This document shows positions 25,892 to 28,724 of a stretch of 64,000 nucleotides of DNA, piece by piece. Position 1 is the first letter of the stretch; each line of letters starts with the position of its first letter. This DNA is from Pirellulales bacterium. Its GTDB lineage: Bacteria > Planctomycetota > Planctomycetia > Pirellulales > PALSA-1355. Under the pieces are notes generated by a model. That model ran no database searches and had not been told where the DNA came from. It was given only the letters and a program-made list of their open reading frames with translations. The position numbers were made by a program, and so were the translations under genes. The stretch spans positions 64,001 to 128,000 of the forward strand of contig CAVTBU010000004.1 in NCBI GenBank assembly GCA_963733035.1, written 5' to 3'.

Positions 25892-27226
25892 CTACCGGTA
25901 GTTCACCATCACGTCGCTCATGGTCTCGGGCGAGATCGCCCCCTCGTCGACCAGGTTTTGCAGCGAGGTTTGCATTGAGACCATGCCGAACTTCTTGCCG
26001 GTCGTAATCACGTTCCGCAGGAAGAATGTGCCCCGGTTGCGAATGATGTGCTTGGTGGCCTGATTGACCACCAGAATTTCACTTGCCACGCGTTTGCCGC
26101 CGTCGCGCGTGGGCACCAGTTCCTGATGAATGATACCCACCAGCGTGTCGGCCAGCACGTAGCGAATGTGGCCTTCGTCTTCGATCGGCACGAAGCTCAA
26201 CAGCCGCTCGATGATCTTGTCAATCGACATGATGTGCAGTGTCGAAAGCACCAGGCAACCGGTCTCGGCCGCGGTAAGCGCGATGCGAATGGTCTCGAAA
26301 TCGCGCATTTCGCCGATCGAAATCACGTCAGGATTTTGTCGCAGGGCCGCCCGCAGGCCGCTATGAAAGTCCGCCGTGTCGCGTCCGATCTGCCGCTGCC
26401 GCACGAGGCCCACCTTGTTCGTATGCAGGTACTCGATGGGATCCTCGATGGTAATCACGTGCCGCGGCTGGGATGAGTTAATCTCGTCGATGATGGCGGT
26501 CATCGTGGTCGTTTTGCCCTGGCTGGCGCTGCCGGTCAGCAGCACCAGGCCCTTGGTCGCCGAGGCCAGGTCGCGCACCACGTCGGGCAATTTCAACTCG
26601 GCCAGCGTCTTGGGCCGCTGAGCCAAAATACGGATCACGGTGCCGACGTCGCCGTCGAAGTAGCCGACGTTGACGCGATAGCGGCCGTAGTCGTCGATGG
26701 CCATGTAGTCGAAGTCGAGGTCCTTGCGAAACTGGGCCTCCTGGTGCTCGTTGAGCAGTTGCAGCGAAAGCCGCTCGCTTTGCTTGCTGGTGAGCGGCTG
26801 CTCGGTGGCCGGCACCAGACGGCGAGCGATGCGAAACAACACCGGCGAACCTGGCGCCACATGAATGTCGCTCACCTTGTGCGCTCGACCGTGCCTGAGT
26901 ACCTCGTGAATCGAAAGCTGGTCGAGCGGCGTCTGCAGCCTTGAAATCGTGGGGATGGCGGTCGGTCGCTCGGGCGCGAGCAGCGAATCGGGCTCGATCT
27001 CTTGGATCGAGGGGGCCACGCGCTGCGGCCGTCCGGTCTTGGGCCCGACGTTGATGTTCGGCGGCGCCACCGTGGCTGCCCCGCTGGGCACGGCGGCCAC
27101 CGGAGCCGAGGCGGGAATCTTCACCACCCCCCGGCAATGCGTGCAGTTGACCTGCTGCTCGCGCGGCTGTGGTTCCACCTGAAACGTACCGGCACAGTGC
27201 GGGCAGCGAAAGCGAACGGGCGCCAT
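25892..27226 (-). CDS. pilT: PilT/PilU-family ATPase with an N-terminal zinc ribbon
   Basis: SDIHV, GSASQGKTT, TIEDPIEY, ALRQNPDVI.IGEMRD and AETG.LVLSTLH motifs; N-terminal CPHC...CTHC. Confidence 0.82.
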   Translation of the reverse strand: MAPVRFRCPHCAGTFQVEPQPREQQVNCTHCRGVVKIPASAPVAAVPSGAATVAPPNINVGPKTGRPQRVAPSIQEIEPDSLLAPERPTAIPTISRLQTPLDQLSIHEVLRHGRAHKVSDIHVAPGSPVLFRIARRLVPATEQPLTSKQSERLSLQLLNEHQEAQFRKDLDFDYMAIDDYGRYRVNVGYFDGDVGTVIRILAQRPKTLAELKLPDVVRDLASATKGLVLLTGSASQGKTTTMTAIIDEINSSQPRHVITIEDPIEYLHTNKVGLVRQRQIGRDTADFHSGLRAALRQNPDVISIGEMRDFETIRIALTAAETGCLVLSTLHIMSIDKIIERLLSFVPIEDEGHIRYVLADTLVGIIHQELVPTRDGGKRVASEILVVNQATKHIIRNRGTFFLRNVITTGKKFGMVSMQTSLQNLVDEGAISPETMSDVMVNYR

Positions 27227-27499
27227 GGGCGTTCCTCTCCTAGCACGGGCAAGCGCCCGGCCATTTCTGGACTGGGATTCACTGTTCCTGGGACCTCTAG
27301 TCTACACCGGGAAGAGAGCCGGAGCAGCATGCCGCGCGACAGACGGGAAACTGTCGGTTGCAAACGCAACGATCGCGGGGAGTTTTCAGGCGGGAATGCG
27401 GTGAGCGCGGCTCGACGCGAAAAAAGAAACCCCGATGGCGTAGCGTGGGCGGACCTCGTCCGAGTGATGGGGCATCTTCACGCGCGGTAGAATGTTGGC

Positions 27500-27628
27500 A
27501 TGGAACCAACCCAGCTCATATTCAGAGCGGTCCAACAGGTGATTCAGTGGTCGGTATGGGCAGCGGTGATACTGGCGGCATCCGTGACACTGGCCTGGCT
27601 CTTTTATCGGCGCCCCCGACCACCGTAG
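27500..27628 (+). CDS. 42-aa single-TM microprotein, apparently leaderless (absent from the ORF track)
   Basis: TAGAAT(27488-27493)-N6-ATG; MEPTQLIFRAVQQVIQWSVWAAVILAASVTLAWLFYRRPRPP. Confidence 0.6.
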   Translation: MEPTQLIFRAVQQVIQWSVWAAVILAASVTLAWLFYRRPRPP

Positions 27629-27690
27629 TCCTAGGACACTACCGACAGGCGCGGGTAGTGGGTGATTAGTGTGTGCAGGGGCGGAGGCGC

Positions 27691-27984
27691 CTATGGACCG
27701 CCGCAAATCAAAGCCAGTAACGGAATGACTACAACGAGAATCGGCACGACCGCTATGCATGCCCCCACAATTGCCCCCTTGAACCACATTCCAAACAGAG
27801 CCCCACACGCCGCTCCGAGAAAAGTGGCGGTCAGGAATACCAAACACAACGTGGACATAATGCTCGTTCCCCACGGGAGCCTCCAGACCGCCAATCCACA
27901 CCCGATGAAGAACGTGCATAAGAAGATGCGTCGAATCGTGCTCCCAGCTGTGCGCTCCCGCGTTTCGTCAACGGCTTCGCTCAT
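27691..27984 (-). CDS. Small multi-TM membrane protein (cassette passenger), apparently leaderless
   Basis: TAGAAT-N6-ATG; starts MSEA; about three hydrophobic helices. Confidence 0.65.
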   Translation of the reverse strand: MSEAVDETRERTAGSTIRRIFLCTFFIGCGLAVWRLPWGTSIMSTLCLVFLTATFLGAACGALFGMWFKGAIVGACIAVVPILVVVIPLLALICGGP

Positions 27985-28064
27985 TCCGGCATTCTAGCAG
28001 GGGAGCGGACGCGCACGAAAAAGCCCGCGAGGAACTTTTCCGCCTCGCCGGCTATACTGGCAGT

Positions 28065-28388
28065 ATGAGCGAGGCATGCGACAAACCGCGATCGCGTAGA
28101 AAAAGTTCCGCCGGAATTTCGGTTGCGCTGACTTGCGGTCTAATTACTGGCTCGTCTCTGTTTCAGAGTTCCGGCATCCTTCCCTCGATTGCCGGATTCG
28201 CAGTAACCGCTGCAATGGCCTTTGGGCTCTGGTGGCTTGTCGATCCGCGAAAGAGTCATTGGACCGGGCTTCTATTGGCGGTCGTGCTCACTGCAGCCGC
28301 AGCAACTATTCTGGTCACCACGCCCGTCCTCCCCGACCTCCTGACCTGGGCAGGTTTCTTCGACATCGGCCCAATCCCTGACCCGTAG
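28065..28388 (+). CDS. Small multi-TM membrane protein (cassette passenger), apparently leaderless
   Basis: TATACT-N6-ATG; starts MSEA; about three hydrophobic helices. Confidence 0.65.
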   Translation: MSEACDKPRSRRKSSAGISVALTCGLITGSSLFQSSGILPSIAGFAVTAAMAFGLWWLVDPRKSHWTGLLLAVVLTAAAATILVTTPVLPDLLTWAGFFDIGPIPDP

Positions 28389-28496
28389 CCGTATCGGCAA
28401 TTCCAATTTCAGACTGACCCACTAGGTAGTGGGTGATTAGTCAGGCGCGACACGCCTTGAACCGCACGCCCCTTGGCCTTATAAATTGTTGTTTGG

Positions 28497-28580
28497 GCCG
28501 AAGTGGCGGAATTGGCAGACGCGCTAGCCTCAGGAGCTAGTCCGGGTAACCGGGTGCAGGTTCAAGTCCTGTCTTCGGCA
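28497..28580 (+). tRNA. tRNA-Leu (CAG); CCA not encoded
   Basis: Acceptor GCCGAAG/CTTCGGC, anticodon arm CTAGC-CTCAGGA-GCTAG, long variable arm, T-loop GTTCAAGTC; TTGAAC-N17-TATAAA upstream. Confidence 0.95.
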
Positions 28581-28724
28581 CTTTCTTGAAAGTTGCGGGG
28601 CGGATCGGCTCAAGTAGCCGCCCGCCCCGTTCTCTTTGGCTGCGGGGCGATTTACAATGCCTCCCCGGCGCTGCGTGCGTCAACTCTCCATGCCAGCCGA
28701 ACCGCCACCCCCTGCTCCGTCACT

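Follow-up and report, generated by a model that had tools for sequence, protein, structure and literature searches.

A probable non-autonomous IS1-family cassette with a doubled end upstream of tRNA-Leu in a Pirellulales genome

We analysed a 64-kb window of a Pirellulales genome (assembly GCA_963733035.1, contig CAVTBU010000004.1, positions 64,001 to 128,000 of the forward strand; the genome is called G000 below, and prefixes such as C5 name its contigs) and followed up a 788-bp unit (27654-28441) located in the spacer between pilT and tRNA-Leu(CAG), just upstream of the tRNA gene. The unit begins and ends with the 17-mer GGTAGTGGGTGATTAGT (R1, 27654-27670, and R2, 28425-28441), the two copies being 100% identical, in direct orientation and 771 bp apart from start to start. 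At up to three mismatches the window contains three matches to this 17-mer, compared with 0.03 expected, and none of 100 shuffles reached three. Immediately outside the two 17-mers are the only two sites of the 8-mer CAGGCGCG in the window (27646-27653 and 28442-28449). This 8-mer is not over-represented as a word (8.7 expected anywhere), and two fixed positions would share an identical 8-mer by chance with a probability of ~2.2e-5 at this base composition. Each 17-mer is preceded by a partial inverted copy, CACTACC at 27637-27643 and CCCACTA at 28418-28424. The unit has two open reading frames (ORFs), the divergent genes B (27691-27984, minus strand, 97 aa) and C (28065-28388, plus strand, 107 aa; 28053-28388 with its promoter hexamer), both of which encode small proteins judged to be hydrophobic by eye. 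The repeats, the partial inverted copies and the two genes had been described in an earlier note on this DNA and were confirmed, and the note's view of the 8-mer as a target-site duplication (TSD) is supported; 8-bp duplications are the rule in the transposon family identified below.

The left boundary of the unit is the tip of a left terminal inverted repeat, GGTAGTGGGTGATTAGTGTGTGCAGG (27654-27679, plus strand), of which R1 is the first 17 nt. The 27-mer at 27653-27679 is identical at C3:11521-11547, the location of the third exact 17-mer of G000 (C3:11530-11546). Near the other boundary, a right terminal repeat of a second subtype, ending in ...CAGACTGACCCACTA (28403-28424, plus strand), is internal to the unit; the CC expected at its end is missing, and R2 begins with its first G at the very next base. 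Positions 28403-28425 match the right end of a 458-bp cassette (C5:2136309-2136766) at 22 of 23 positions. R2 repeats nucleotides 1-17 of the left repeat, is oriented like R1 and stops exactly after nucleotide 17, with the right copy of the TSD directly outside it; the left copy of the TSD starts 2 bp (GA) past the tip of an older transposon end. Four direct GGTAGTG pairs were examined in G000, and R1/R2 is the only one with a flanking 8-bp duplication. An alternative in which the unit is a standard insertion into a solo 17-mer site was rejected, because cut points other than the boundaries at 27654 and 28441 give no equal 8-mers on both sides (as read from the sequence; the pair scan finds only k=17). 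A 151-nt contig from sequencing run X4 spans the left junction (27541-27691) with one difference, and this run is perhaps the source sample and thus not independent support. The right junction is covered by none of the run contigs, none of which reaches across an empty site, a solo-17-mer allele or the junction of a circle, a result that counts neither for nor against such forms; the best DNA run shares 0.18 of words, and no RNA run was listed. Repeats of 17 bp are below the usual word sizes of assemblers.

The 17-mer forms the tip of the terminal inverted repeat (25-28 nt) of an IS1-family transposon found widely across this planctomycete family. Family comparisons cover 33 genomes, G000 and 32 others. 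In these, the 17-mer with up to two mismatches has 58 matches in 25 genomes, compared with 9 for the reversed motif used as control. Most of the matches (41 of 58) continue as one of four 26-nt variants, and three more were recognized by eye (at a contig end, with a 1-nt shift and with an internal duplication). Alignment of 32 instances shows unconserved upstream sequence, a sharp start at GG and similarity to about nucleotide 26. Complete elements are present in relatives: in G022:C6 (L066 382-4682) inverted 28-nt ends lie 4.3 kb apart with GCGGCTGC duplicated on both sides, and in G041:C10 (L065 372-5057) perfect inverted ends of 25 nt lie 4.7 kb apart. Each encloses a transposase ORF of 318-342 aa plus passenger genes. 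The tips of complete elements are GGTAGTG, GGTACTG or GGTGGTG at both ends and fit GGnnnTG; such tips, with target duplications of 8-9 bp, are given for IS1 in Table 8 of PMC10425158 and in PMC6807381. Perfect 8-bp duplications flank the elements in G022 and G046, a mini-element in L095, and the G000 elements on C8, at C5:1768206, on C10 and at C5:1179095. These results do not support the proposal in the earlier note that the unit fits no insertion sequence (IS) or miniature inverted-repeat transposable element (MITE), and its suggestion of an undescribed cassette-shuffling system gives way to a non-autonomous derivative whose ends match an IS at the family level, an outcome that the note itself had listed among its refutations.

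The ~340-aa ORF is predicted to be a distant IS1-family transposase, an assignment made at the family level only. Scores against Pfam PF03400 (DDE_Tnp_IS1, cut-off 24.1 bits) are 26.1 bits for the G022 ORF and 21.4 bits for the G041 ORF, and the ORF has the N-terminal zinc-binding motif of the IS1/IS1595 type. A tblastn search with the transposase found eight plasmid records (22-33% identity, 53-92% coverage), six of which carry the annotation IS1 or IS1 family transposase. Homologues are present in 24 of the 33 genomes, in 20 of the 25 with the 17-mer versus 4 of the 8 without; kin genomes are not independent in these counts, and other repeat subtypes were left uncounted. The three other species of the genus lack the enzyme. 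The window also has no homologue, in agreement with the note's statement that it encodes no recombinase as far as this enzyme is concerned; the window was not scanned for other recombinases.

G000 has two copies of the transposase, 73-76% identical to the G022 ORF and both on other contigs (C5 and C8), consistent with the earlier view that the unit has no transposase of its own and would be mobilized in trans. The element at C5:1179095-1184417 is bounded by inverted ends and a perfect duplication (GAATCTCG), and its 343-aa transposase ORF (C5:1180560-1181576) is open. In the element at C8:74032-77760, with the duplication CGAATTGC, the transposase ORF (C8:75252-76268; L069 1498-2532) is broken by a single in-frame TGA into 139 aa and 204 aa. 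A scan of G000 for tip pairs with matching 8-bp flanks recovered four elements, the C8 transposon and three cassettes without a transposase (458, 673 and 951 bp). The duplication agrees at 7 of 8 positions in the 458-bp cassette at C5:2136309 and is perfect in the other three, and repeat identity is extended in all four; the reversed-motif control gave seven pairs, each with one mismatch and zero repeat identity. In G046 there is an 879-bp cassette with inverted ends, the duplication GAAGCCGT and a promoter-start module as in gene B. A Pirellulales metagenome-assembled genome contains a 50-bp mini-element (L095) with the duplication TACATCCC.

The exact 17-mer is present at nine loci of the genome collection, five of them planctomycetal and four apparent chance matches in other phyla, judged from titles and flanks. 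A 16-mer scan of metagenomes gave at least 120 loci, by eye nearly all unrelated repeats of other organisms, with ~4 resembling this repeat, too few to serve for break-point statistics. The mini-palindrome pattern was found order-wide in 2 of 401 genomes, both of them known from the comparisons above. A high-copy repeat resembling repetitive extragenic palindromes was rejected, as 13-mer counts along 27380-28620 reach a maximum of 10 and a position weight matrix scan of G000 found only three strong copies. A broader flank-repeat scan with a loose tip pattern gave 753 mostly chance matches and was not used.

We interpret the 788-bp unit, with a probability of roughly 0.8, as a non-autonomous derivative of an IS1-family transposon (a mobile insertion cassette, MIC) that is mosaic and was moved in trans. 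The analysis shows the identity of the ends, the 8-bp duplications of the family, autonomous and non-autonomous copies in G000, and an extra ~1 kb at the locus relative to most relatives. The left half of the unit (left repeat, gene B and its promoter) resembles a module on C3, and the right half (promoter, gene C and right repeat) the 458-bp cassette at C5:2136309. The left boundary (27654) is that of a MIC or MITE. The right boundary is not, the inverted right repeat being internal and without its last 2 nt, and the unit is an aberrant variant. The direct orientation of the two 17-mers beside a duplication is the remaining oddity.

A transposase acting in trans would have inserted the unit into the 8-bp target CAGGCGCG, which lies 2 bp from the older solo end and immediately upstream of the tRNA-Leu promoter; G000 has an intact copy of such a transposase at C5:1180560-1181576. 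We tentatively propose, as the preferred reading although clearly less probable than not, that the direct 17-mers derive from a circular cassette, with right and left ends abutted, that integrated via its single left end. One strand would be nicked at the repeat tip and the other after nucleotide 17, and gap repair would copy both the 8-bp target and the 17-nt tip. The product would be laid out like a copy-in cointegrate (target - IS - donor - IS - target) in which the "IS" is 17 bp long, and recombination of one 17-mer with the other would reduce it to a solo 17-mer with the duplication on either side. In G024, which belongs to another genus, a solo 17-mer is present between 9-bp repeats (CCTGCCCCG), and the sister species G006 and G020 have a single CCTGCCCCG and no 17-mer. 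Copy-in cointegrates, as described in PMC6952201, share the topology of the window, and their resolution yields one IS with an 8-bp duplication; cointegrate formation is the mechanism listed for IS1 in Table 8 of PMC10425158. The layout in the window relates to that in G024 as a copy-in cointegrate to its resolved product, and single-end integration of a circle is therefore proposed; the comparison suggests a cointegrate-like or one-ended integration. L088 in G046 has a 17-nt stretch of left repeat fused to a 15-nt stretch of right repeat, with the flanks CTTTTTGC and CTTCTTGC; two 17-nt ends with an overlap of GC would give this structure. In G001 a candidate for a third solo 17-mer (L045, flanks GCGGGTG and GCGGGATG) was set aside, its alignment with G000, G002 and G003 being too diverged for an empty site.

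A break after nucleotide 17 recurs in the window, in the solo 17-mer of G024 and in two 17+15 palindromes. A further and doubtful step would be to regard the first 17 nt of the repeat as a self-sufficient recombination site with a stagger of 17 nt like that of the P element, such that any circle with one tip could integrate in the manner of a cointegrate, duplicating 8 bp of target and 17 bp of repeat, and later be lost, leaving a solo 17-mer. If this were the case, the elements would amount to a genuine system for inserting and excising small gene cassettes, not far from what the earlier note had suspected, and a single repeat tip would be enough to shuttle circles. If the break reflects the cleavage pattern, it would also offer a first view of second-strand processing by IS1-type enzymes, of which we know of no description.

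Several observations weigh against the interpretation of the unit as an IS1-family derivative moved in trans, or against the integration route proposed for it. The scores of the transposase ORFs against NCBIfam NF033558 (IS1; 72 bits and E 5e-20 for G022, 71 bits and E 1.6e-19 for G041) are below the curated cut-off of 100 bits. The repeats of the transposase-bearing copies in G000 (GGTAGTGTCCTA...) diverge from the window type after nucleotide 7, the window-type repeat adjoins a transposase only in other genera (G022), and cross-mobilization of the window unit by the G000 transposase is only a possibility. At its right boundary the unit has 17 nt of the left tip in direct orientation, where a standard two-ended insertion would leave an inverted repeat beside the 8-mer, and the right repeat has lost its terminal CC; the unit in its present form therefore does not look mobilizable by the standard two-ended reaction. 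No second target-17-mer-body-17-mer-target structure was found in G000 (one of four direct pairs) or among the family matches, and no empty or solo-17-mer allele of the locus was found in relatives, whose spacers are unalignable at 73-84% identity. The 17+15 structure in G007 (L036), similar to that in G046, has no recognizable duplication, and the 50-bp mini-element retains 21 nt of each repeat, not 17. Further, the 17-mer was itself the search pattern, and break points of the repeat before nucleotide 15 are thus invisible.

The rival explanation that survives best, although unlikely, regards the locus as IS1-family debris with no special mechanism. An earlier element would first have left a solo stub of its left repeat flanked by CAGGCGCG. 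The 17-bp homology would then have let a circular or neighboring cassette recombine into this stub, through host functions or a targeted conservative reaction like that of IS26, so that ordinary events would be stacked at an insertion hot spot. PMC6952201 describes IS26-family elements adding circular units beside a resident copy with no new duplication. The solo 17-mer of G024 with its flanking duplication is an independent example of such a stub, end-to-end abutments are present elsewhere (L043, L053, L058 and L065), and the pilT-tRNA-Leu spacer is itself crowded with three copies of CAGGCG (27386, 27646 and 28442) and three transposon ends. However, this explanation requires a separate unexplained event to produce a solo 17-mer with intact duplications, and 17 bp is short for host homologous recombination. 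We also know of no conservative targeted reaction for IS1-family enzymes. The probability that is left falls to stacked events that are beyond reconstruction.

It is very improbable, and already largely refuted, that the unit belongs to an undescribed cassette-shuffling system, unrelated to any IS or MITE, in which a dedicated site-specific recombinase would use the 17-mer as a direct-repeat attachment site. The direct orientation of the repeats, passenger genes that vary between copies and the adjoining tRNA gene are what such a system would show; however, in relatives the same sequence forms inverted ends around an IS1-like DDE transposase with 8-bp duplications, and in the window the repeats do not overlap the tRNA gene. 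Least probable of all, and dropped, is an immobile element in which the C/A-rich complement CCTGCACACACTAATCACCCACTACC would be a conserved 3'-UTR, Rho-entry, terminator-like or small-RNA element of small genes: many genes do have the motif 0-90 nt past their stop codon, and its complement contains a single G in 26 nt, but those genes are unrelated (small membrane proteins, transposase, methyltransferase), the motif has a sharp outer boundary and forms inverted pairs with 8-bp duplications, the Rfam search had no match except the tRNA, and no terminator-like site was found in 27200-28650.

Adjacent to the unit is an older one-ended remnant, module A (27488-27643, plus strand). A -10-like hexamer, TAGAAT (27488-27493), lies 6 nt before the ATG of its 42-aa hydrophobic ORF (27500-27628), and its right repeat (27616-27643) terminates at 27643 with the tip ...CACTACC. 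This repeat is of the C8 subtype, sharing 26 of 28 positions with the right end of the complete element C8:74032-77760, and the stretch 27477-27494 agrees at 17 of 18 positions with four promoter copies on C6. No convincing left repeat was found in 27200-27640 (best match 15 of 26), and because it has no detectable partner repeat, module A is read as a probable older solo transposon end. On the other side of the unit, the conserved tRNA-Leu(CAG) promoter and the gene occupy 28451-28581 (plus strand), with hexamers TTGAAC (28457-28462) and TATAAA (28480-28485) separated by 17 nt and the gene at 28497-28581. The hexamers were read by eye, and a consensus scan covering the stretch did not report them. 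Homology with relatives resumes at 28451, one base past the right 8-mer. The synteny of pilT and tRNA-Leu is kept in the family, with spacers of ~120-590 bp in 11 relatives, ~1.9 kb in G016 and ~1.2 kb here, ~1 kb longer than in 11 of the 12 relatives. A separate observation in this spacer is that 11-mers within AGCGCGGCTCGACGC (27404-27418) have 21-58 genome occurrences on both strands, far above neighboring words.

The mRNA of gene B is probably leaderless, because its -10-like hexamer, TAGAAT (complement of 27991-27996), is only 6 nt before the ATG; the hexamer of gene C, TATACT (28053-28058), has the same position, and the two promoters lie back to back. Gene B has one clear homologue (51% identical, E 1e-23) in G003, of the same genus, at another locus and not flanked by the repeat. 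Gene C has no homologue at E <0.001 in the 32 other family genomes, and a Pfam search of both genes found no family. The promoter-plus-start module of gene B recurs at C3:11176-11202 (26 of 27 positions) and in the 879-bp cassette of G046, and that of gene C matches C5:2136410-2136435 at 25 of 26. By eye, the cargo of the G000 cassettes comprises two different 95-aa small membrane proteins and a 230-aa PEP-CTERM-like protein. The larger elements carry other genes, also assigned by eye: a HigB/HigA-like pair and a 511-aa DNA methyltransferase-like ORF in G022 (L066 498-1332 and 3108-4643), and a protein-kinase-like ORF and two small proteins with MTAPRRRWFQFSLRTLL-like starts in G041 (L065 2045-3267 and 4014-4963).

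A -10-like hexamer (TAGAAT or TATACT) exactly 6 nt before ATGAGCGA (Met-Ser-Glu/Asp) heads seven small ORFs in G000, compared with none for the reversed control. These are located in the window at 27982-27996 and 28053-28067, and at C3:11182, C4:32194, C5:2136415, C6:943957 and C8:5726. The protein bodies behind the module are mutually dissimilar, and in four of the seven a transposon end lies within 50 nt past the stop codon; the arrangement looks like a portable leaderless expression module. Module A (27488-27502) has the same -10 spacing and a different start and is outside the seven. Its promoter type, TTCATGCGCGGTAGAATG, is present in four copies within 1.3 kb at C6:944211-945484, suggesting a tandem array of tiny genes. 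The homologue of gene B in G003 is flanked by a palindrome, GGGTGCCACTGCTGGC...CCAGCAGTGC (L101, G003:C6, 1301-1335 and 2301-2335), a candidate second repeat family; similar palindromes are present in the pilT-tRNA spacer of G014 (L026).

Other copies in G000 have features of their own. The duplications around the C8 element are still perfect, and the TGA in its transposase may reflect recent inactivation or stop readthrough. Three tips (C3:11078, C6:210201 and C10:55585) are preceded by (G/C)AAAA(A)TG, which may be a target preference or a sign of related copies, and those at C3:11078 and C6:210201 also share ~12 nt beyond the tip. At C3:11000-12200 there are three tips of the left-repeat type in the same direction (12197, 11546 and 11078), each followed by reverse-oriented genes, with no right repeats between them, an array-like arrangement that simple insertions do not explain.

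A distant IS1-family lineage in planctomycetes moves passenger genes in transposons of 3.7-5.3 kb and in transposase-free cassettes of 0.45-0.95 kb, many of which carry small, putatively leaderless membrane-protein genes with their own promoter. This lineage explains several orphan small genes and interspecies differences in spacer length, here at a tRNA promoter. A literature search found no account of such elements in planctomycetes, and an IS1-like lineage with many small-gene cassettes in this group is apparently undescribed.

An integron cassette has a GTTRRRY core in an imperfect palindromic attC site and an IntI integrase nearby; the boundaries here read GGTAGTG... and are not of the GTTRRRY type, and IntI was not searched for. 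In tRNA-targeting integrative elements the direct attachment repeats include part of the tRNA, and an integrase is encoded inside. The repeats described here end 56 bp upstream of the tRNA 5' end, outside the promoter, and the 788 bp contain no integrase-sized ORF. The Drosophila P element makes 8-bp duplications and a staggered cut 17 nt inside its repeat, with footprints of up to ~17 nt of each repeat. These footprints resemble the 17+15 and solo-17 structures and are a lead only; the P element transposase is a eukaryotic, GTP-dependent THAP protein unrelated in sequence. One-ended transposition of Tn21 was reportedly described by Avila et al. in 1988, and target duplications in the Tn3 family, to which Tn21 belongs, are 5 bp. 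In the account given in PMC4133298, a single Tn21 repeat can drive insertion with a precise start at the repeat and a variable end. The Tn21 transposase is of another family, and the end point here is precise, at nucleotide 17 of the second repeat copy.

Cointegrates and translocatable units of IS6/IS26 share with the window the order TSD, repeat, passenger, direct repeat, TSD, with 8-bp duplications, and their resolution leaves one copy, as described in PMC6952201; IS26 also shares GGnnnTG ends with IS1 according to PMC6807381. However, the duplicated unit of IS26 is a whole 820-bp IS with both ends and a transposase, compared with 17 bp of one end in the window. Membership in the IS26-type units fails because only 17 bp are duplicated, and the window unit works like one at most.

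ISfinder has an IS1 subgroup with passenger genes. The planctomycete lineage shares with the IS1 family, as presented in Table 8 of PMC10425158 and in PMC6807381, the GGnnnTG tip (here GGTAGTG), duplications of 8-9 bp, a DDE transposase with a zinc-binding motif of the IS1/IS1595 type and cointegrate chemistry. It differs in having a single transposase ORF of ~340 aa, 22-33% identical to annotated IS1 and below the NCBIfam cut-off, and in the size of its passenger-bearing elements, and the window unit has no transposase. MICs are described in PMC3129680 as non-autonomous units bounded by IS ends, with or without passengers, that can be activated in trans by a cognate transposase. The three cassettes in G000 and the one in G046 are proper examples, and the window unit shares with MICs and MITEs the lack of an inner transposase and the presence of a cognate one elsewhere in the genome. 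The window unit differs in its right end, a directly repeated and truncated tip of the left repeat; the kind of element is ordinary, and the doubled end is unusual.

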